A program made the translations under genes and the position numbers. A stretch of DNA of 64,000 nucleotides from Akkermansia muciniphila. Its GTDB lineage: Bacteria; Verrucomicrobiota; Verrucomicrobiia; Limisphaerales; BJHT01. The notes under the pieces are model-generated. The model ran no database searches, was not told the origin of the DNA, and was given only the letters and a program-made list of their open reading frames with translations. This document shows, in pieces, positions 6,478-42,233 of the stretch; position 1 is the first letter of the stretch; each line of letters begins with the position of its first letter. The stretch covers positions 11,908 to 75,907 of the forward strand of contig CAMAUZ010000012.1 in the NCBI GenBank assembly GCA_945861535.1, written 5' to 3'.

Positions 6478-7323
6478 CTAGCGCTTGAGGTTGAGGGCTT
6501 CCTGCAACATTTCATCACTGGTGGTGATGATCTTGGCGTTGGCCTGATAGCCGCGCTGGGTGGTGATGAGGTTGGTGAATTCGTTGGCGATATCCACGTT
6601 GGCCAGTTCGAGCACGCCTTGCTGGAGGGTGCCGAGGCCGGCGGTCTGCGGGGGTTTGGGGATGGTGAACAGCGGGCCGGCGGCGTCCAGGTTGGAATAG
6701 TTGTTGCCGCCTTCTTTCACGAGGGCCTGGGGATCCATGAAATTCTGCAGCAGGATCTGGCCGCGGGTGAAGGTGGTGCCGTCGGAGGCGCTGACGAGGA
6801 GCTTGCCGTCGGAGCCGACCGCCCAGTTTTGCAGGTTGGCACCGACGGTCATGGTGGCCGGGGCACCGGTCAGATCGATCTTGATGTCGCCGAGGGTTGT
6901 CAGGGCCGCATCGTTGTACCCTTGGACCCGAAAGCCGCCGTTGGTGACGAGGTAGCCAGTTTGGTCCACGCGAAAGTCGCCGGCGCGGGTGGCCAGGGTG
7001 TTGTTGGTCACCGTGTTGCGGACGAGGAAAAAGCCTTCGCCCGCGACCCCCATGTCGGTTTCGAGACCGGTGCGGGCGAGGGGTCCCTGGGTGAAGACGC
7101 TGTGGATCGCGTTGGTGGTGACGCCGGAGCCGATCTGGCCGCCGTTGACGGCGGCCGCGCCGCCGGTGGCAAGGCGGAGGGACTGGCTGAAGTTGTCCGC
7201 AAAATCGGCGCGGGCGGACTTGTAGCCGATGGTGCCGGCGTTGGCGATGTTGTTGCCGATCACGTCCATGCGCTCCTGGAAGCTTTGCATCCCGCTGATG
7301 CCGGAAATAAGGGAACGAATCAT
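6478..7323 (-). CDS. flgE: Flagellar hook protein FlgE (short form, 281 aa)
   Basis: MIRSLISGISGMQSFQERMDVIGNNIANAGTIGYKS ... LQQGVLELANVDIANEFTNLITTQRGYQANAKIITTSDEMLQEALNLKR are the rod/hook N- and C-terminal signatures. Position after flgD. Confidence 0.75.
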   Translation of the reverse strand: MIRSLISGISGMQSFQERMDVIGNNIANAGTIGYKSARADFADNFSQSLRLATGGAAAVNGGQIGSGVTTNAIHSVFTQGPLARTGLETDMGVAGEGFFLVRNTVTNNTLATRAGDFRVDQTGYLVTNGGFRVQGYNDAALTTLGDIKIDLTGAPATMTVGANLQNWAVGSDGKLLVSASDGTTFTRGQILLQNFMDPQALVKEGGNNYSNLDAAGPLFTIPKPPQTAGLGTLQQGVLELANVDIANEFTNLITTQRGYQANAKIITTSDEMLQEALNLKR

Positions 7324-7368: not shown

Positions 7369-7854
7369 CTACTGACTGACAGCGTACTGGGCGACGCGCT
7401 GCTGAGTTTCCGCCGCGGCGGCCGGGGCCTGGCTGATGCTGAGCACCTGCTGGAGCGTGTAGCGACCGTCGTCGATGAGCAGCACGGGCTTGCCCTCGAT
7501 GGAGCGGACTTCCGAGACGACGCCGGAAAGGGTTCTGGGCAGTTCCCCCTTGGTGGCATCGGGGTTGGTCTGCACCTGCACCAAGCGGCCGATCATCGAG
7601 CCCGCGCGCAGCATGGCGAACTCGTTGCTCATGCCCTTGGTCATCTCGAGGTTCGAGAAATTGGCCATCTGCGCGATGTAATCGGTGTCGGCCTTCGGGT
7701 TGAGCGGATCCTGATTGCTAAATTGGGCGACGAGCAGTTTCAGAAAGTCATCCTGGCCGAGGGTCTTGGTGGTGATGCGGCTCTCGGCCGGCTGGTAGCC
7801 GGGTTCGCCGGGGCCGGGAGTGGGCTTGGCGGTGATGTCGGAAATGGCAGGCAT
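7369..7854 (-). CDS. flgD: Flagellar hook assembly/capping protein FlgD
   Basis: 161 aa; LGQDDFLKLLVAQFSNQDPLNPKADTDYIAQMANFSNLE is the FlgD N-domain signature. Confidence 0.85.
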   Translation of the reverse strand: MPAISDITAKPTPGPGEPGYQPAESRITTKTLGQDDFLKLLVAQFSNQDPLNPKADTDYIAQMANFSNLEMTKGMSNEFAMLRAGSMIGRLVQVQTNPDATKGELPRTLSGVVSEVRSIEGKPVLLIDDGRYTLQQVLSISQAPAAAAETQQRVAQYAVSQ

Positions 7855-7860
7855 AGTTTT

Positions 7861-10800
7861 TCAGGCCCAGCGTTCGAGGCCGGATTTCGGGGTGGTGCGG
7901 GTCGCGGTGCCGCCGGAGCGGCGCGGCCCGGGCGCGGTTGACGCGGCGGCGAGCGACCGCTCCTCGCGGAACCGGGGCGGCGGTTCGGAGTGTTGCTGCG
8001 GTTGGTGGCCGGTGCCGGTGTGGGTGCCGCCGTTGCCGCTGCCAGTGCCGGTCGCGGTCCGCGCGGGGTCGGTCAGTTCTTGGGGCGCGAGCGTCGAGCG
8101 CTGCAGCGGCGCGAGGGCGACATCCTGGCCGGCGAGGGTGGATTGGAGCTGTGCCCAGTTTAGTTCGAGATGCTGGAAGTCGCCGCGCTCGCAGCGGATG
8201 AGGGCCTCGGTCCGCCCGTTGCGCTGGCTGATCTGAAGGAAGAGTTCCGTGCGGGAATCGGGCTTCAAGACGATGGCCAGCGCGTCGGCCCCGAGCTGGC
8301 GCACGAGGGTGAGTTCGCGGGAGATCAGGTTCATCACCTTGTCCACGGAAACCTGCGGATGCTCGGGCAACGGTGGCGCGGCGGCGAGGGCGGCGGCGTG
8401 CGGATCGAGGGGAACGCGGGGTGCCCACGGGGCGGTCAGGTCCGCCGGGCCGGTGAGGTCGGTGGGGAAGGGGCGGGCGGCGCGGCGGACTTTCCATTGC
8501 CCGGGGAGGGCGGGGGTTTCCGGGTTGCCCGCCAGGCCCGCCAAGCCCGCCACGAGGGGCAGATTCGGCTGTTCCCGAAGGTTGGTTTGGTTCCCTGCAT
8601 CGGCCGTGTTCATGTTGGAAATAGTGGGAGCAATGGATGTGCCAGCGTCTTCGCGGCGCGGACGGGCGGCGGGGATTGGCTCGGCGGCGGCGCGAGCGGC
8701 GAGAAATCCCATCGGCGTCGGCGGGGTGGCGGATGGGGCGTCGGTGGGGCGAAGGGCCGTGGGGACGGGGCGAACTGCGGGTTGGCGGCCGCGTTCCTCG
8801 CCGCGTTCGTCGCCGCGCGGGGATTTTTCCACGGGGGCCTCATCGCGGGACGGGTTGCGGTGCTCGGGGTTTGATCCGGCAAGGTTTTCCCCGGTGGTGC
8901 CGGTCGGGAGCGGGTCAGCGTCGGCAAAAGTGCCGGGGGTGGGGAGTTCCTGCCGGTCGTGCTGCGCCAGTTCGGCGGTGGTGGCGGTGGTCGCGAGGTT
9001 CGTGGCGTTGGCGGCGTCGGTGGCGACCGCCGGGGACGGCGTGCCGGCAGCGGACGCGACGTTGGCGAGAGAGGCGTGCCGCCAGCCGGGGAGGAGTTCG
9101 TGACCGCGGGCCTGCCAGGTTTCGGGTTGGGAGATGACGCGGCGCAGCGTGCCGTCGCGATCGCGGAAGGCGAGGAGGACGCGTTGTTCGGCCGGCGGGG
9201 CGGGGGCGGGTACGGGGGCGGCGGCGCGGGGGGCGGCGGCCGGCGGCGCGGGGGATGCGGCGGGCGTGATGGGGGTCGCAGTCCAGTGCGCGGAATCGGC
9301 GGCGGCGGTGGATTGGAGATTTGCGGTCGGCGATTGGAGGGGCGTCGCGGGGAGGAGCGCTGCGGCAGGAATGCGGGAGGCGGCGGTGGGTGTGGGTGCT
9401 GAGGCAGGCGTGGCGGGTGGGGCGGAGCGGGGGGCGGGGTTTGCGATTGCGGAATTCAGCAGCGGCGGGCGGTGGGGAGCGGCGGACGGGACGGGGGCGG
9501 CGGCGGGCGGAGCAGACGCGGAGGAACGGGGGAGCGTGGGGCCGGGGCTGGCGGGTGGGCCAGGTGGGGTGGATTTGAGATTTGAAATTGGCGATTGGCG
9601 CGGCGCGGCGGGGCCGGTGGGTTGGGAGGGATCTGGGGTTTGCGATTTCAGCGCGGTGGTGGAAGGGGCGGGCGGAACGATGGGAACGGACGGCGCATTG
9701 CGGGACGACTGGAGCGGGTGCCCGGCTGGTTCGCCCATCGCTGAGCGGGCGGGCAGAGCGGGTTCGGGAACGGGGCGGAGGGAGGCGGAATTGCCGTCGC
9801 CCGGAAGGCGAGCTGGCGGGGAAATGGAGGCATGGGAATCGGCCGGGGCATGGTCGGAGGTGCCGTTCGGCGGTTGAACGGGAGCGGGGATTGCGCGATC
9901 GGGGAGGGGGCTGATTCGCGCCGGCAAGCCGGGCGGAAACAATGTGTCTCGACCCGGAGACGCGCGGAACGGGATGACTGGCGTGGCCGGCGGTGCGGTG
10001 CGTTCGGCGTTTGCGGGGATGGTGGGCCGAGCGGGAGTGGCGGGTTCAGATTTCCCCGGCTGGGCGGGGCCGGGTCGTCCCGGCAAGGCGCGTGGAGACA
10101 ATTTGTCGCCATCCTGAGGTTCGTGGAGCGGGAGCGGTTGCGCCGACGACGGCGCGGGTGGCTCACTGTTCGTTGGGACGGTGGCGGGGGCTGGAGTTGC
10201 GAATTCAGATTTCTGCGGCAGGGCGGCGGACGGGGCGTCGGTGGGCGCGGCGGGCTTTGAGGATTTGACGGCGGCGGCGGATTCGGAGGCTTCGAGATTA
10301 ATCCATTCGACCTGGATCAGTTCGGGTTCGCTGGCAATGAAGAGGGGCGGAGTTTTCGCAAGGAGCGCGGGCGGGGCGACGGCCTCGGTCAGGCGGATGC
10401 CAGCGGCGGCAGGCGCTGGCGTTGGCGCTGGCGCGGTGATCCCGGTGATGGCCGGGCGCGGCGGAAGCGGGGTCACGGATGGGGTCGTGGCGGTGGCGGT
10501 GCCCGTGGTCGAGACGGCGGTCGCGACGGTGGCCGTGGCGGCGGGCACGGAGCGCGTGTTGACGAGGGGGAGCAGGGGGAAGGTCCGGCGCGTCGGCTCG
10601 GCGCGGCTGACGGCGACGGGCGCGGCTCCGGCCGGGCGGGGTGCGGATGCGGGGGCCGCCACGCGGCGCTCGGGAGGGGTGGGCGTCGCGGCGGTCGAGG
10701 TCGGGCTTGGGGTTGGGGTTGGGCGCGTCGCGGACGATGCGGCGGCCGGGCGCTCGGGGCTGGGGGGCGGGCTGGAAAGGGTCGGCGCCGCCGAGGTTGA

Positions 10801-13302
10801 GGCCGCTGGCGTGTTGGTCTGTGTGGCCGTCGGCGTGGGTGAATTAGGATCAGGAACTGTCGGCGGGGGCGGGGATGCCGGGGTGTTGGGAGGGGTGGCG
10901 GGGGCGGGGGCGGAATTGAGATTTGAGGTTTGAGATTTCGGAACGGTGCTGGAGGCAGCCGGCGGTGTGAGGGGCGCAAGTGCGGCTGGAGCGGGCGAGC
11001 CGGCGGCATTGGAAATTGGTGATGAGAGATCGGGGGCGGCGGGAGGCGGCGGCAGCGGAACGGCTGCGGTGGTCAGTGGAGTGACGGGGGCAGCGGGTGT
11101 CGCGGCTTCAGATTTTACCGATGCGGGTGCGTTGGGAGTGGGAGCGGGAGCTGGTGCGGCGAGGGCGGGGATGCCGGACTGCGCACGCAAGGAGTTGCGA
11201 TTTGGGATTTCAGATTGCGGATCGGCGGCGGAGGGGGAGGCGGCGGGAGTTGGGAGGGGTGCGGGTGTAGTCGGTGCGGGTGGGGGATTTGAGACTTGAG
11301 ATTTGAGATTTGGGGCGGCAGGGGACGGCGGCGGCGGGGGAACGGCAGCGGCGACCGGAGCGGCGGGGGCGGCGGGAGTTGCAGTTGCAGTTTCTGCCGG
11401 CGACACCGAATCGGAAGCGGCGGGAGGAGCGGGAGTGGCGGAAGGAACTGGAGTGGCGGGGGCGGCCGCGCGGGACTGGGCGGGCGCGGCATTGAGATTG
11501 GCGAGTTGAGAATTCCGATCGGCGGTGGGACTGGACGAATTGCGGGCGGAGATTTCCGTTTTGGGTAGTGGGATGGCGACGGCGGCAGCGGAGATGGGAG
11601 CAGGCGTGGTCGGGGCGGCCGGGGCTGGGAGAGATGAGATTTGAGATTTCAGCAGTGATGCGGAAGCGGCGGCCGTGGCGAGCGGAGCGGGACTTGGAGC
11701 GAGCGAGGCGGCGGGAGAGGCAGGTTCGGATTTTACCAATGATTCCGCAGCAGAAGCGGCAGTGGGCGTGGACGTGGCGGGCGCGGGAGATTCGGAAGGG
11801 GCGAGCGGCAAGGCGGGGTTTGAGAGTTCAAGTTTCAGCTCGGGGCCTAGGTCGGATGAGCTGCGAACTGAGATTTCAGATTTCAGACCAAACTCCGAAA
11901 TCGCCGGGGCCAAATCTCCCGCGAGAACAGGCGGCCTGACCGTTTCGCTCGGCAACTTGCCGCGCGGATGGAGGCGGGCATCCGCGCTTTTTGCCGCGTC
12001 GTTTTTTGGGTTAAGCGTTCTGGCCGTTCCGCTGGGCTGGTAGCCCGGCGGCACAGGCAGGTAGCCAGTGCCACCCGTCTCCGTTGTGGCGTTTGGGCTT
12101 GGATCGGGAGCGGCGGCGAAAGCTGGCGGGCGCGGGGTGGGCACGGACGGCGGTAAGAAAGGCCCAGCGGCCGCGGCGGACGGAACGCTGGCTGCGGCGG
12201 TGGGCAATCCGGAATTTCCATCGGAAATTTCGGAGTTGAGCGGCGGGGGCGACGGGGTGGCGGAGAGCAGTGGAATCAGGGGTGCGTGGAGGACGAGGTA
12301 GCACTGCGCGGCGAGAGTGGCGGCGGCGAGGGCGGTGGCTTCGGTGTCGCTCGCGGGGGCGCGCGGGGGCGCGGGAGGAAGGTCGTTGTCGGCGGGCGGA
12401 GCGGCGGAGTCGGTCTCAGGCGCGGACAAATCCGCGGCCGCGGGGGTGAGCGCGGGAGCGGGAAGGGGCGCCGGGGTGGTGGGGGAAAAAGTTGCGAGCG
12501 GGACGGCGGGTTCGAGTTCGCGCGGGGTGGATTGGAGATTTGAAAGTGGCGGTTTCCGCGCGGGAGCAGGAGTCGCTGCGAGGGCGGGCGGCGGCGCTGC
12601 GTGCAGAGTGGGTTCCGCGTCGGTGCGGTATTCGAGGACTGGAAAAGCGCGGGGGAAAGTTGTTTCGGTCGGGGTGGATTCCGCTGCGGCGGGCGGGGCG
12701 GGGAGCTGGGTGAAGGGGTGTTCCGGCGGCGGTGCGACCGTCGTCTCGCTCGGCTCCGGGAGCAGGAGAGACGGGGCGAGGAGAGGCTCGGCGGTGGGTG
12801 GTAAATCCGCCTCTCCCAATATCGCTGCCCAGCCTTCGTCACGCGCGGGCCATGCGGAGAGAGGGAGACCGAGGCGGGGTTCGTCCGGGCCGCTTGGGCG
12901 CGAGTTTGCGAAGCGACGGCTGGCCGGTGGGACGGGTGCGGATTCGGTTTGGTGCGGGATGGTTTCGGGAAGCGCGTCGGCTTCGAGCAAGTGAAAATCA
13001 GGCGCGGTGCTCGCGTCGTCTGGGGCGGTTTCGATTGCGTGGGGAGCGGGCTCCGGAGGGGCGGGTGCCGGTTCCGCCGGGAGGTCGGCGAGCGCGAGAT
13101 CGTAGTCGGAGGAGAGTAGCGCGCTGAAATCTTCGGGCGCGGGCGTTGGGTCGGGCACGGGCGCGGGCGCGGACCAGCGGTCGAGGAACGCGGAAAAATC
13201 CGCCACGCTTGGCGGGGCGGCGTCAGCGGCCGGGGCGGCGGCGGGGGCGGGGGCGGCGAGGAAGGGGAGGAGGTCGGTGGGCGGGGCGCTGGTGGCGGTC
13301 AT
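7861..13302 (-). CDS. fliK: Flagellar hook-length control protein FliK, giant form (1813 aa), Pro/Ala/Ser/Thr-rich
   Basis: Uninterrupted 5.4-kb ORF. ATG 13302 overlaps the upstream stop (ATGA). The C-terminal region VDKVMNLISRELTLVRQLGADALAIVLKPDSRTELFLQISQRNGRTEALIRCERGDFQHLELNWAQLQSTLAGQDVAL fits the FliK C-terminal (Flg_hook) domain. Position between the ylxF-like gene and flgD. Confidence 0.75.
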   Translation of the reverse strand: MTATSAPPTDLLPFLAAPAPAAAPAADAAPPSVADFSAFLDRWSAPAPVPDPTPAPEDFSALLSSDYDLALADLPAEPAPAPPEPAPHAIETAPDDASTAPDFHLLEADALPETIPHQTESAPVPPASRRFANSRPSGPDEPRLGLPLSAWPARDEGWAAILGEADLPPTAEPLLAPSLLLPEPSETTVAPPPEHPFTQLPAPPAAAESTPTETTFPRAFPVLEYRTDAEPTLHAAPPPALAATPAPARKPPLSNLQSTPRELEPAVPLATFSPTTPAPLPAPALTPAAADLSAPETDSAAPPADNDLPPAPPRAPASDTEATALAAATLAAQCYLVLHAPLIPLLSATPSPPPLNSEISDGNSGLPTAAASVPSAAAAGPFLPPSVPTPRPPAFAAAPDPSPNATTETGGTGYLPVPPGYQPSGTARTLNPKNDAAKSADARLHPRGKLPSETVRPPVLAGDLAPAISEFGLKSEISVRSSSDLGPELKLELSNPALPLAPSESPAPATSTPTAASAAESLVKSEPASPAASLAPSPAPLATAAASASLLKSQISSLPAPAAPTTPAPISAAAVAIPLPKTEISARNSSSPTADRNSQLANLNAAPAQSRAAAPATPVPSATPAPPAASDSVSPAETATATPAAPAAPVAAAVPPPPPSPAAPNLKSQVSNPPPAPTTPAPLPTPAASPSAADPQSEIPNRNSLRAQSGIPALAAPAPAPTPNAPASVKSEAATPAAPVTPLTTAAVPLPPPPAAPDLSSPISNAAGSPAPAALAPLTPPAASSTVPKSQTSNLNSAPAPATPPNTPASPPPPTVPDPNSPTPTATQTNTPAASTSAAPTLSSPPPSPERPAAASSATRPTPTPSPTSTAATPTPPERRVAAPASAPRPAGAAPVAVSRAEPTRRTFPLLPLVNTRSVPAATATVATAVSTTGTATATTPSVTPLPPRPAITGITAPAPTPAPAAAGIRLTEAVAPPALLAKTPPLFIASEPELIQVEWINLEASESAAAVKSSKPAAPTDAPSAALPQKSEFATPAPATVPTNSEPPAPSSAQPLPLHEPQDGDKLSPRALPGRPGPAQPGKSEPATPARPTIPANAERTAPPATPVIPFRASPGRDTLFPPGLPARISPLPDRAIPAPVQPPNGTSDHAPADSHASISPPARLPGDGNSASLRPVPEPALPARSAMGEPAGHPLQSSRNAPSVPIVPPAPSTTALKSQTPDPSQPTGPAAPRQSPISNLKSTPPGPPASPGPTLPRSSASAPPAAAPVPSAAPHRPPLLNSAIANPAPRSAPPATPASAPTPTAASRIPAAALLPATPLQSPTANLQSTAAADSAHWTATPITPAASPAPPAAAPRAAAPVPAPAPPAEQRVLLAFRDRDGTLRRVISQPETWQARGHELLPGWRHASLANVASAAGTPSPAVATDAANATNLATTATTAELAQHDRQELPTPGTFADADPLPTGTTGENLAGSNPEHRNPSRDEAPVEKSPRGDERGEERGRQPAVRPVPTALRPTDAPSATPPTPMGFLAARAAAEPIPAARPRREDAGTSIAPTISNMNTADAGNQTNLREQPNLPLVAGLAGLAGNPETPALPGQWKVRRAARPFPTDLTGPADLTAPWAPRVPLDPHAAALAAAPPLPEHPQVSVDKVMNLISRELTLVRQLGADALAIVLKPDSRTELFLQISQRNGRTEALIRCERGDFQHLELNWAQLQSTLAGQDVALAPLQRSTLAPQELTDPARTATGTGSGNGGTHTGTGHQPQQHSEPPPRFREERSLAAASTAPGPRRSGGTATRTTPKSGLERWA

Positions 13303-13997
13303 GTTTTCGGTTTGTCAGCGGCTTTGCGGGAGACGGAGAGGCGGAGGCGTTCGGAGATGAGGGCGGCGCGTTTGGCGGCCTGTTCATTGGGACGGGCGAG
13401 GGTCTCGAGGATCGGCGCGGTTTCGGTCTCCTTCATGAAGAGCATGATCTTGACGACCACGGCGTCGCCCATTTCCCGCATGATGGCGGCGGCGGAAACC
13501 GGGTCCATGACCGCGTAGGTCTTGGCCAGTTTCTTGAGATTGGCGACCTCCTCGTCCTGCACGCGGGCGATGGTTTTATCCATGTCGTCCTGGACCTTGG
13601 AGACGGTTTGGGCCAGCTCGGCCTGGGTTTTGGCGACGGTCCGGTCGAACTCGTCCTGCAACTGTTTGACCTCCTTTTTGAGGGCGTTGAGTTCGTCGCG
13701 TTCGGCGCGGAGGCGGACTTCGAGTTCGAGCATTTGTTCGCGGCGTTTGGCCAGCGCGCCTTTTTCCTCGCGCAGGTCGCGCACCAGCTCCTCGATTTCG
13801 GGATTGGTGAATCCCCACGAGGCGGCGGGCTCGCTGGACTTCGGTTCGACCGGTTCGGATGGCTCGTGCGCAACCGGCGGCGGCGCGAGGGATTTGGCGG
13901 CGCGCAGGGCCAGCCCGGCGGCGATGGCGAGGAAGACCACGCCGCCGAGCGCGGCGGCGAGCCATTTGGATTGGAGGAGCGGGAGGAGTTTTCCCAT
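13299..13997 (-). CDS. MotE/YlxF-family flagellar protein (N-terminal TM, coiled coil, MgtE_N-like C-terminus)
   Basis: 232 aa with a long heptad-like charged region, then KKLAKTYAVMDPVSAAAIMREMGDAVVVKIMLFMKETETAPILETL. Occupies the ylxF slot between fliJ and fliK. Confidence 0.6.
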   Translation of the reverse strand: MGKLLPLLQSKWLAAALGGVVFLAIAAGLALRAAKSLAPPPVAHEPSEPVEPKSSEPAASWGFTNPEIEELVRDLREEKGALAKRREQMLELEVRLRAERDELNALKKEVKQLQDEFDRTVAKTQAELAQTVSKVQDDMDKTIARVQDEEVANLKKLAKTYAVMDPVSAAAIMREMGDAVVVKIMLFMKETETAPILETLARPNEQAAKRAALISERLRLSVSRKAADKPKT

Positions 13998-15873: not shown

Positions 15874-15918
15874 GGGAATTTCGAGTGGGGAATTTCGAAT
15901 GGCGAATAGCCGATAGCA

Positions 15919-15953
15919 GATGGCCGATGGCCAATGGCCAGTGGCCGATGGGT
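15919..15953. repeat. Five tandem heptamers (gatggcc gatggcc aatggcc agtggcc gatgggt) in the fliH-fliI spacer
   Basis: Read directly from lines 15901-15960. Preceded by two ggaatttcga units at 15873-15898. Confidence 0.6.
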
Positions 15954-16534: not shown

Positions 16535-16537
16535 GGG

Positions 16538-16686
16538 AAAAAGCTCCAAGGATAAAGCTCAAAGCTCAAGGGAAGGGCCAAGGAACAAGCGTTTCCAAGG
16601 GGCAAGGGGCGCAGGTTTTTTAGCGTGCTATTTGGACCTTGGCGCTTGGTGCTTCCCTTGAGCTTTGAGCTTTGAGCTTTGAGCTT
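16538..16686. repeat. MITE-like element R6, short copy
   Basis: Terminal inverted arms aaaagctccaaggataaagctcaaagctcaagggaag / cttcccttgagctttgagctttgagctttgagc. A longer copy is at 24289-24517. Confidence 0.85.
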
Positions 16687-17817: not shown

Positions 17818-17876
17818 GGGTGATTTCGGTTTGGGGTTTGGCGGTGAACGGGCGGGCGGCCCGCCCGCGCTCGGGA

Positions 17877-21780: not shown

Positions 21781-21860
21781 TTGGCAAAGGAATGGAGGCA
21801 AAGGAATGAAGACAAAAAGTCTCCCCGTCCCCATTCCTTTGCCTCCATTCCTTTGCCCAA
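21781..21860. repeat. REP family R4, copy 1
   Basis: ttggcaaaggaatggaggcaaaggaatgaagacaaaaagtctccccgtccccattcctttgcctccattcctttgcccaa. An inverted copy is at 42152-42233. Confidence 0.9.
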
Positions 21861-24288: not shown

Positions 24289-24517
24289 AAAAAGCTCCAA
24301 GGATAAAGCTCAAAGCTCGAGGGAAGCACCAGGGATCAAGGTCCAGTCCGGGCGGGCCGAGGGCGCGTCACTTCGAGTCGTGGCACTGCTCGCGGCGTTT
24401 GTTCGCAACCGTCCGCACCCGCACGGGCAGATTGTCTGGGGAAATGTGCCGACGGTGAAACGGGACGCACCCGAACTGGCGCTTGGAACTTCCCTTAAGC
24501 TTTAAGCTTTGAGCTTT
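24289..24517. repeat. MITE-like element R6, long copy
   Basis: Same terminal arms as 16538-16686 (aaaaagctccaaggataaagctcaaagctcgagggaag ... cttcccttaagctttaagctttgagcttt), with a about 150-bp unrelated core. Confidence 0.85.
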
Positions 24518-42151: not shown

Positions 42152-42233
42152 TTGGGGCAAAGGAATGGAGGCACAGGAATGGGGACGGGGAAACTTGTTG
42201 TCTTCATTCCTTTGCCGCCATTCCTTTGCCAAA
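42152..42233. repeat. REP family R4, copy 2 (inverted)
   Basis: ttggggcaaaggaatggaggcacaggaatggggacggggaaacttgttgtcttcattcctttgccgccattcctttgccaaa. Confidence 0.9.

Follow-up and report, generated by a model that had tools for sequence, protein, structure and literature searches.

Here, we describe an exceptionally long fliK gene in a window of 64,000 nucleotides (nt), the whole stretch of DNA analysed, from a freshwater member of Verrucomicrobiota in the Limisphaerales/Pedosphaera group, which is uncultured and known solely from lake metagenomes. The gene is a minus-strand open reading frame (ORF) at 7861..13302, for which a first-pass annotation of the DNA letters had proposed a giant FliK, and that reading is now supported by its position in a flagellar operon, by the profile and fold of a C-terminal type III secretion substrate-specificity switch (T3S4) domain, by an N-terminal motif and by a long open frame in sister lineages. 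Sequence comparison and structure modelling support the ORF as a genuine FliK orthologue by domain, position and termini, with a divergent T3S4 domain, and it is a real, conserved and exceptionally long variant of a known protein. This Limisphaerales fliK is probably translated as a single polypeptide of 1813 residues, which follows a three-part plan of an N-terminal motif region, a spacer of ~1600 residues, and the C-terminal T3S4 domain with a tail.

An open frame of 1813 codons in the fliK position

The ORF comprises 1813 codons and a stop codon, starts with ATG and contains no internal stop, as had been claimed at first reading, whereas the remaining two frames of the same strand over 7861-13302 contain 22 and 17 stops and those of the opposite strand 13-30. 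The region has a G+C content of 66-76% with a very C-rich coding strand, and spurious long ORFs are therefore frequent here, with numerous ORFs of 150-400 amino acids (aa) overlapping real genes. In dinucleotide-preserving shuffles (n=500), the open run had a mean of 625 codons and a maximum of 1438, and 0/500 reached 1813; the 1813 open codons exceed what base composition accounts for. The encoded protein consists of 20% Ala, 20% Pro, 9% Ser and 9% Thr, these four residues amounting to 59%. The coding strand opens with ATGACC, and the ATG overlaps the TGA stop (13299-13301) of an upstream 232-aa gene, so that the start of fliK and the stop of this ylxF/FlbB-like gene share an ATGA at 13299..13302 on the minus strand, where the earlier annotation had placed it. 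This overlap suggests that translation of fliK may be coupled with that of the upstream gene.

The ORF lies in the fliJ-ylxF-fliK-flgD-flgE slot, a claim of the first-pass annotation that is confirmed both by the neighbours in the window and by 64 related loci. The order on the same strand is FliI, FliJ (PF02050), the 232-aa coiled-coil protein, the fliK ORF, FlgD (PF03963), a 281-aa FlgE-type protein, FliL and FliM, and all neighbours of fliK are flagellar (FliF/G/H/I/J, FlgD/E, FliL/M/N/O/P/Q/R, FlhB and FlhA). The order fliI-fliJ-ylxF-like-[slot]-flgD-flgE is kept in the 64 species-level relatives having both flanking genes, and the slot is occupied by one single ORF in nearly every one of them.

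The T3S4 domain, corresponding to the FliK-C core, was located at aa ~1652-1740 (8083..8349, minus strand) by homology, profile and fold. Residues 1652-1740 have a counterpart close to the C-terminus in 61 of the 64 clade slot proteins, aligning with up to 55% identity, and nothing outside them aligns to the clade FliKs, except that the matches of two relatives extend to the C-terminus. A profile of the clade domain found Salmonella FliK-C (2RRL) as its best match in the PDB (E 3.8e-4, ~97 residues). Furthermore, Pfam Flg_hook (PF02120) was matched by 26 of 27 clade domains, with a best E of 1.4e-7 and no other family recurring, and PF02120 is also among the precomputed annotations of three database homologues. 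A single-sequence AlphaFold model was too poor (predicted local distance difference test, pLDDT, 51) and was replaced by a model from a 62-sequence alignment, in which the core is predicted with a pLDDT of ~90 and an alpha-beta-beta-beta-alpha-beta topology. The two best matches of this model in a Foldseek search of the PDB were the PscP switch domain 5CUK, with a template modelling (TM) score of 0.69 normalised to the target and a root-mean-square deviation (rmsd) of 2.5 Å, and FliK 2RRL, both with a probability of 1.00.

The direct family scans of the giant protein itself weigh against its assignment to FliK. Flg_hook scored 12.1 bits (E 0.17) against the last 299 aa, the test that had been proposed with the initial reading, and 14.5 bits (E 0.031) against the isolated 121-aa domain, both below the cut-off of 29.8 bits; a Pfam scan of the full 1813-aa protein and of 300-500-aa pieces returned nothing above threshold, and an NCBIfam scan of both FliK ends returned no match. 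The sub-threshold Pfam score reflects the threshold of the database and not a biological feature, and the profile and fold tests compensate for it. The expectation of a recognisable FliK C-terminal switch domain near 8100-8400 held for the location of the domain but not for its being recognisable by a simple Pfam scan.

Both ends of the protein also resemble those of other FliKs of the clade. The C-terminal tail (aa 1741-1813; 7861..8082 with the stop codon, minus strand) ends in ...ERWA, and the clade consensus ends in RGWExWA; this tail showed 77-83% identity in a scan of identity over 30-residue segments, and its residues 1741-1771, the last of the model, had a pLDDT of <50. At the other end, a clade motif, F-x-x-[VLIFM]-[MLIV], is present at aa 32-41 in 48 of 63 FliKs (3.3 expected by chance), and the giant FliK carries it just twice, as FSAFL at aa 36 and again as FSALL at aa 59. 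The N-terminal region, aa 1-65 (13108..13302, minus strand), is conserved, with 73-83% identity to L081 (L-numbers denote related genomic loci, and X-numbers metagenome or metatranscriptome runs), and the G+C content at third codon positions (GC3) is 0.84 in the first 100 codons. In FliK, the N-terminal part bears the export signal of the hook type and binds FlgD and FlgE; the present region is presumed to be the end for export and interaction with the hook cap, and it may resemble the N-terminus of Salmonella FliK. Both termini are thus FliK ends, and the ATG at 13302 is the clade-typical start.

The long frame is conserved in sister lineages as well. Relatives in which it is open are L083, L081, where this holds for each of the three pieces separated by scaffold gaps (826, 2405 and 1519 nt), and L082 and L003, where it reaches the contig edge after 1042 and at least 975 codons, respectively; the other frames of the relatives' longer pieces contain 7-18 stops. 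The indels against close relatives are of 18, 6, 12, 3 and 6 nt, the lone exception being a 14-nt duplication in L084. From these comparisons, selection has kept the frame linking both ends open in several lineages.

FliK length in the clade and in characterised rulers

The comparison of FliK lengths across related genomes, suggested with the initial reading as a check, was carried out on the 64 related species, in which the slot FliKs range from 345 to 1094 aa with a median of 539. The giant FliK is 1.7x the longest intact clade FliK (1094 aa), and the species spanning FliK lengths of 345-1813 aa have FliI proteins that are 73-97% identical. The sister lineages L081 and L084 retain ~1650-1815 codons. 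When the C-terminal third (484 aa) served as the query of an initial homology search, low-complexity candidates dominated and the matches numbered only 5, and domain-only and profile searches gave mostly fragments and truncated gene calls; the lengths were taken instead from genomic loci and from an exhaustive hidden Markov model (HMM) search of 1.84 billion representative proteins. The latter found 1370 proteins with the domain, and the best 150 are 182-1086 aa long with the domain always C-terminal. A literature search found no report of very long FliKs in Verrucomicrobiota.

The 4.4-kb slot of L014 (12404-16763) is filled by a pair of overlapping ORFs (670 and 926 aa) that lie in different frames and probably represent a FliK of ~1450 aa interrupted by a single frameshift. 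Its different composition and lack of the heptamer motif described below suggest an independent origin of the very long form.

Salmonella enterica FliK is a protein of 405 aa with FliK-N at 1-207, a linker at 208-267 and FliK-C at 268-405, the last consisting of a core (268-352) and a disordered tail (PMC6972891). The giant FliK is similar to it in having an N-terminal export/ruler end, a Pro-rich linker, an alpha/beta T3S4 core and a C-terminal tail, in the alignment of the 2RRL core by the clade profile together with the matching fold of the model, and in adjoining flgD and flgE. In contrast, it is ~4.5x longer, as the first-pass annotation had in essence stated by calling it several-fold longer than characterised FliKs; it has ~1650 residues before the core instead of 267; its sequence similarity is marginal (Pfam 12-14.5 bits); its spacer has heptamer-encoded modules and conserved islands without a counterpart in Salmonella; and its operon is of the Bacillus/spirochaete type (fliJ-ylxF/flbB-fliK-flgD-flgE). 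The other FliKs of the Limisphaerales/Pedosphaera group share with it the slot, the T3S4 domain (<=55% identity), the position of the N-terminal motif and the terminal ...WA, and differ from it in length and in the heptamer-encoded KSEIS modules, which occur in the window and L081-L084 only.

The injectisome rulers provide a second comparison. The natural length of YscP varies between 452 and 538 aa with the copy number of 14-, 25- and 46-aa repeats, and needle length scales linearly with it (PMC3469391). The giant FliK shares with YscP/PscP the T3S4 switch domain, its best fold match being PscP 5CUK, but is encoded in a flagellar and not an injectisome gene cluster and is far longer; it is not an injectisome ruler, despite that match. 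Furthermore, the repeats of YscP/PscP are defined peptide units, whereas the modules of the giant are translated 7-nt DNA repeats. Relative to the YscP precedent, the novelty lies in the scale and in having modules that are translated 7-nt repeats.

Anatomy and evolution of the spacer

The ratio of nonsynonymous to synonymous substitution rates (dN/dS) was determined with reference to L084 (3% divergent) and to L081/L082 (16-32% DNA divergence). The values against L084 and against L081/L082, respectively, were 0.06-0.19 and 0.12-0.29 for the neighbouring flagellar genes, 0.11 and 0.21-0.25 for the T3S4 domain, 0.45 and 0.34-0.38 for the C-terminal tail, and 0.43-0.97 and 0.26-1.06 for everything upstream of the T3S4 domain. 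Strong purifying selection is limited to the T3S4 domain and a few islands, with the Pro/Ala/Ser/Thr-rich rest evolving almost freely. In the 30-residue identity scan, the conserved parts were aa 1-60, ~300-360, ~900-1020, ~1375-1410 and ~1440-1813, and the conserved islands are separated by three hypervariable Pro/Ala/Ser/Thr-rich tracts.

All of the following parts lie on the minus strand. The first hypervariable tract, which is Pro/Ala-rich (aa ~120-300; 12403..12945), has 37-67% identity to L081 and a dN/dS of 0.81, and is followed by a conserved island (aa ~301-355; 12238..12402) with 73-77% identity to L081. The next, repeat-rich tract (aa ~356-850; 10753..12237) contains degenerate K-S-(E/Q)-I-S-(N) modules and has a GC3 of ~0.60. 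A further conserved island at aa ~900-1020 (10243..10605), which includes LFIASEPELIQVEWINLEASES, shows 60-77% identity to L081 and L082, and the GC3 is 0.86-0.90 at aa 851-1000, overlapping the start of this island. The third tract, Pro-rich and hypervariable (aa ~1021-1374; 9181..10242), has a dN/dS of 0.69-1.06, holds an internal ATG at codon 1189 and contains more copies of the heptamer-encoded motif at 9572-10212. It is followed by a strongly conserved island at aa ~1375-1410 (9073..9180), EQRVLLAFRDRDGTLRRVISQPETWQARGHELLPGWRHA, which has 93% identity to L081 and L082 and a GC3 of 0.89, and by a conserved pre-domain region at aa ~1441-1650 (8353..8982), which has 60-97% identity and a dN/dS of 0.61-0.70 and is equivalent in position to the FliK linker.

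Since its sequence is Pro/Ala/Ser/Thr-rich and weakly constrained, the ~1600-residue spacer is presumably disordered. The initial description of a ~1500-residue Pro/Ala/Ser/Thr-rich disordered region agrees with this in composition and length and needs amendment in that the region is not a uniform filler, holding conserved islands and the segment of aa ~1440-1650. To judge from the alignments with relatives, the spacer evolves by in-frame indels and repeats.

The repeats include heptamer and 62-nt families found within fliK. FliK contains 12 copies of [K/N]-[S/T]-[E/Q]-x-[S/A/P/T], typically LKSQISN or LKSEIS, compared with 0.3 expected, and these modules are nearly always encoded as AAA TCT (G/C)AA ATC TCA AAT, which is the 7-nt repeat TCAAATC on the coding strand. 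In ordinary genes here, TCT accounts for 1 of 126 and TCA for 2 of 126 Ser codons, and the identical rare codons are present in the modules of L081 (12 copies) and L082 (4 copies) despite heavily diverged surroundings. Because 7 and 3 are coprime, (TCAAATC)n encodes the same cyclic peptide, S-N-L-K-S-Q-I, in every frame and is free of stops, and its complement, (GATTTGA)n, hits TGA in all frames. The heptamer-dimer matches in the 64-kb window were all inside fliK (10/10) and all in the stop-free orientation (10/10). A KSEIS-type motif was absent from the 64 other clade FliKs and L003 and was present only in the window and L081-L084; long FliKs therefore do not require it, and it characterises this sub-lineage.

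The simplest reading of these sequences is that a DNA repeat class native to the lineage has expanded inside a tolerant spacer, where the sole constraint would be the frame. That the heptamers in the ORF derive from a repeat dispersed across the genome is only partly supported: related 7-nt repeats in intergenic spacers speak for it, and the location of all 10 unit matches of the 64-kb window within fliK speaks against it. The repeat can grow in the coding spacer regardless of phase because it gives the same peptide in three frames and one orientation is stop-free, and its insertion and expansion regardless of phase would, if true, represent an unusual, frame-independent way of lengthening a protein. 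The heptamer-encoded modules connect protein evolution with a class of non-coding repeats in these genomes.

Period-7 or 14-nt tandem repeats were also observed in the window outside fliK. They are present in intergenic spacers at 15874-15951, 16536-16686 and 17828-17841, two of which end at or just before a start codon, with more arrays at 21783-21857, 24305-24318, 24495-24517 and 42156-42182. A CCATYGG array extends right up to the ATG of fliI, GGTTTGG x2 sits 11 nt before fliG, and the fliG-fliH spacer contains (AGCTCAA)4 with a complement (TTGAGCT-type) ~90 nt downstream, which could pair as a long hairpin. In L001 (9930-10000), the fliH-fliI spacer directly upstream of the fliI start contains a GAAATCT/CAAATCT unit, as translated inside fliK. 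One possibility is that the arrays in spacers form an element of the 5' untranslated region. An Rfam scan of 6-18 kb gave a lone sub-threshold plant microRNA match on a heptamer spacer, which was dismissed.

Possible consequences for hook length

FliK is the textbook molecular ruler, whose loss results in polyhooks, and tests of how hook length depends on ruler length have been confined to engineered Salmonella proteins with lengths of 363-785 residues. Each residue added to these lengthened the hook by 0.2 nm, over a range of 42 to 135 nm, and the much-lengthened FliKs remained secreted and still switched the export apparatus (PMC6126814). The giant FliK is 2.3x the longest of them (785 aa), and they carry artificial, alpha-helical YscP inserts, whereas the spacer of the giant is natural and Pro/Ala-rich. 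By analogy with Salmonella, the giant FliK would be secreted N-terminus first via the flagellar type III apparatus during hook growth (PMC6972891, PMC6126814), and its T3S4 domain would switch FlhB provided that the chain has not yet left the channel by the time the domain arrives at the export gate. Its size may have been reached by repeated in-frame duplication and slippage in the little-constrained spacer, an expansion that would be set in an order with very labile FliK length (345-1813 aa). Extrapolation with 0.2 nm for each added residue gives a hook of ~340 nm; with ~0.3 nm per residue preceding the domain, a ratio of our own arithmetic from Salmonella dimensions, it gives ~0.5 µm for the rod and hook together.

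It is plausible, although short of probable, that the hook is proportionally long, and a spacer decoupled from hook length is rated about equally likely. Several observations weigh against strict proportionality: hooks longer than ~75 nm impair swimming in Salmonella (PMC6126814), the spacer evolves in a near-neutral manner, and FliK length has a five-fold range within one order, which argues against tight coupling to a selected hook length. In the decoupled form that we consider a quite possible alternative, the full-length switch protein is made and most of the spacer is not a ruler, with a shorter effective segment or secretion kinetics setting an ordinary hook. The effective segment could run from the island at aa ~900-1020 or that at ~1375-1410 to the T3S4 domain, so that the extra length would be nearly neutral. 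This would be consistent with a spacer that has a dN/dS of 0.4-1.06 with frequent indels and is interrupted by conserved islands, with the spread of FliK lengths (345-1813 aa) in species having such similar FliI proteins, and with the like heptamer repeats in non-coding spacers, which suggest a mutational over an adaptive origin. However, both systems tested, FliK of 363-785 aa and YscP, scale linearly with residue number (PMC6126814, PMC3469391), and the N-terminal motif remains at the very start of the giant and not beside the islands. It is also to be considered that ~1650-1815 aa are retained in lineages with spacers that have diverged from one another by 25-50%, which argues that the length has some value.

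Taken jointly, it is a tentative and, as a whole, rather doubtful proposition that, along the lines predicted in the first-pass annotation, either the 1813-aa ruler builds a hook of several hundred nm, which would far exceed all characterised hooks, or the ruler is non-linear in nature, and that it has grown partly by co-opting a 7-nt spacer repeat. With clade FliKs from 345 to ~1100 aa and the 1813-aa giant between the same flanking genes, this group offers a natural series for relating hook to ruler length, or for asking if long disordered spacers can be borne without effect.

Probable full-length translation and its alternatives

The gene call in the database covers 625 aa from an internal ATG, codon 1189 (9736-9738), and an alternative to translation of the whole 1813-codon frame is that just a 3' portion (625, 455, 423 or 250 aa) is expressed from an internal start, with the upstream 3.5-4.7 kb being untranslated or non-coding and open by chance. 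Several findings weigh against full-length translation in this sense. The calls in relatives cover merely 455, 423 or 250 codons, beginning likewise at internal codons, so that the 5' part was rejected in four assemblies, where callers put spurious opposite-strand genes over it. The GC3 is ~0.85 in ordinary genes here and ~0.60 in fliK codons ~450-800, substitutions in the central region are evenly spread over codon positions, as non-coding DNA would show, and heptamer repeats resembling those directly upstream of the fliI start occur within the ORF. The metatranscriptomes X23-X25, all from one source study, gave just 30-55-nt low-complexity or heptamer matches and were uninformative on expression.

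Nevertheless, we consider an internal start improbable. The callers dropped the 5' part because the GC3 falls to ~0.60 in codons 450-800, and the internal starts that they chose differ between relatives and are at non-homologous positions. None of the 500 shuffles matched the run of 1813 open codons, the other same-strand frames contain 17-22 stops, and the frame stays open in diverged lineages with indels in multiples of 3. The clade N-terminal motif is found solely at aa 36 and 59 of the long ORF; a product without this N-terminus would miss the export end required by FliK (PMC6972891), and a coupled start at 13302 agrees with the ATGA that fliK shares with the gene upstream.

Under-calling of fliK was observed clade-wide, the calls containing the last 130-625 codons only, even on contigs of 26-184 kb (for example, L081 4235-5893, L082 301-1041, L083 819-1415, and P0037, P0052, P0055 and P0070). 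FliK lengths in protein databases are therefore unreliable in these bacteria, and the truncation by callers, together with the spurious opposite-strand genes, leaves FliK under-annotated in metagenome-assembled genomes (MAGs) of Verrucomicrobiota.

A second alternative to a functional giant FliK is that fliK is a decaying gene or pseudogene in a lineage losing motility, its length being the result of uncontrolled repeat expansion. It draws on the relaxed constraint across most of the ORF and on the close strain L084 (96.9% identity to the window), in which fliK carries a frameshifting 14-nt tandem duplication at codon ~1357 (about L084 9377), a point against an intact gene, and fliM (L084 12873-13889) a premature stop at codon 169. 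As the stop in fliM accompanies the frameshift in fliK, L084 is either decaying or error-prone, and it may represent a non-motile population variant or contain consensus errors of the assembly. Decay is nonetheless very unlikely for the window, in which fliK and all neighbours are intact, where purifying selection on the neighbours and the T3S4 domain is strong, and whose frame is intact in the X1-X3 populations, L083, L081 and L082. The arrangement as two genes (1565 + 250 aa) called in L084 was rejected, being due to the 14-nt duplication, which is absent from the window, L083 and X1-X3.

The size of the giant ORF is not an assembly artefact. Overlapping contigs from X1-X3, three independent lake-water metagenome runs, tile 7700-13500 and thereby the whole ORF without indels, which bears out the uninterrupted frame of the initial reading, and the sole indel seen was a 1-nt deletion at a depth of 2/7 in a fourth run, inside a G/C run. 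In a different assembly, L083 has 99.4% identity across 3.9 kb, with four substitutions and one in-frame 18-nt indel near 11459. Enlargement of fliK by mis-assembly of low-complexity or repeat sequence is hardly credible, even though the repeat region at 11.37-11.72 kb interrupts the short-read contigs and relatives' contigs often stop or hold N gaps within fliK, given the full-length agreement of the X1-X3 contigs and the consistent size in three more assemblies, namely, L083 at that identity, L084 with a slot of 5447 nt and L081 with one of ~4950 nt. Apparent kilobase-skipping joints in the contigs, as placed on the window, rest on G/C-rich sides of 20 nt and were treated as spurious. Within the repeat tract, a cluster of substitutions without indels at 11424-11619 separates strains in X1-X4, and contigs break there in every run.

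Neighbouring genes and related records

The upstream gene in the ylxF position (13299..13997, minus strand) encodes the 232-aa coiled-coil protein, for which no Pfam family passes the cut-off; its similarity to collar_FlbB, a collar protein of the spirochaete periplasmic flagellum, is weak (E 2.9e-6, below cut-off). The gene is kept in all 80-odd relatives. Downstream, flgD (hook cap; PF03963) occupies 7369..7854 on the minus strand, its start lying 6 nt past the fliK stop, followed by the gene of the short, 281-aa FlgE-type hook protein at 6478..7323 (minus strand), which contains Flg_bb_rod, LlgE_F_G_D1 and Flg_bbr_C. The contrast drawn in the first-pass annotation between the giant FliK and this short FlgE carries no weight, because ~280 aa is normal for the operon type, being standard in the operons of all relatives, and a Bacillus-type model of 263 positions is matched by the protein from one end to the other.

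Ten third-party MAG records among the related loci (L004, L005, L010, L017, L021, L028, L044, L054, L056 and L062) bear taxon labels including Klebsiella, Bifidobacterium, Saccharibacteria, Pseudomonadales and Baltobacteraceae. Their FliI proteins are 75-82% identical to that of the window, and all of them have a Verrucomicrobiota-type flagellar operon except L017, a 1.4-kb contig with fliI alone; because of these FliI and operon types, the labels look wrong.

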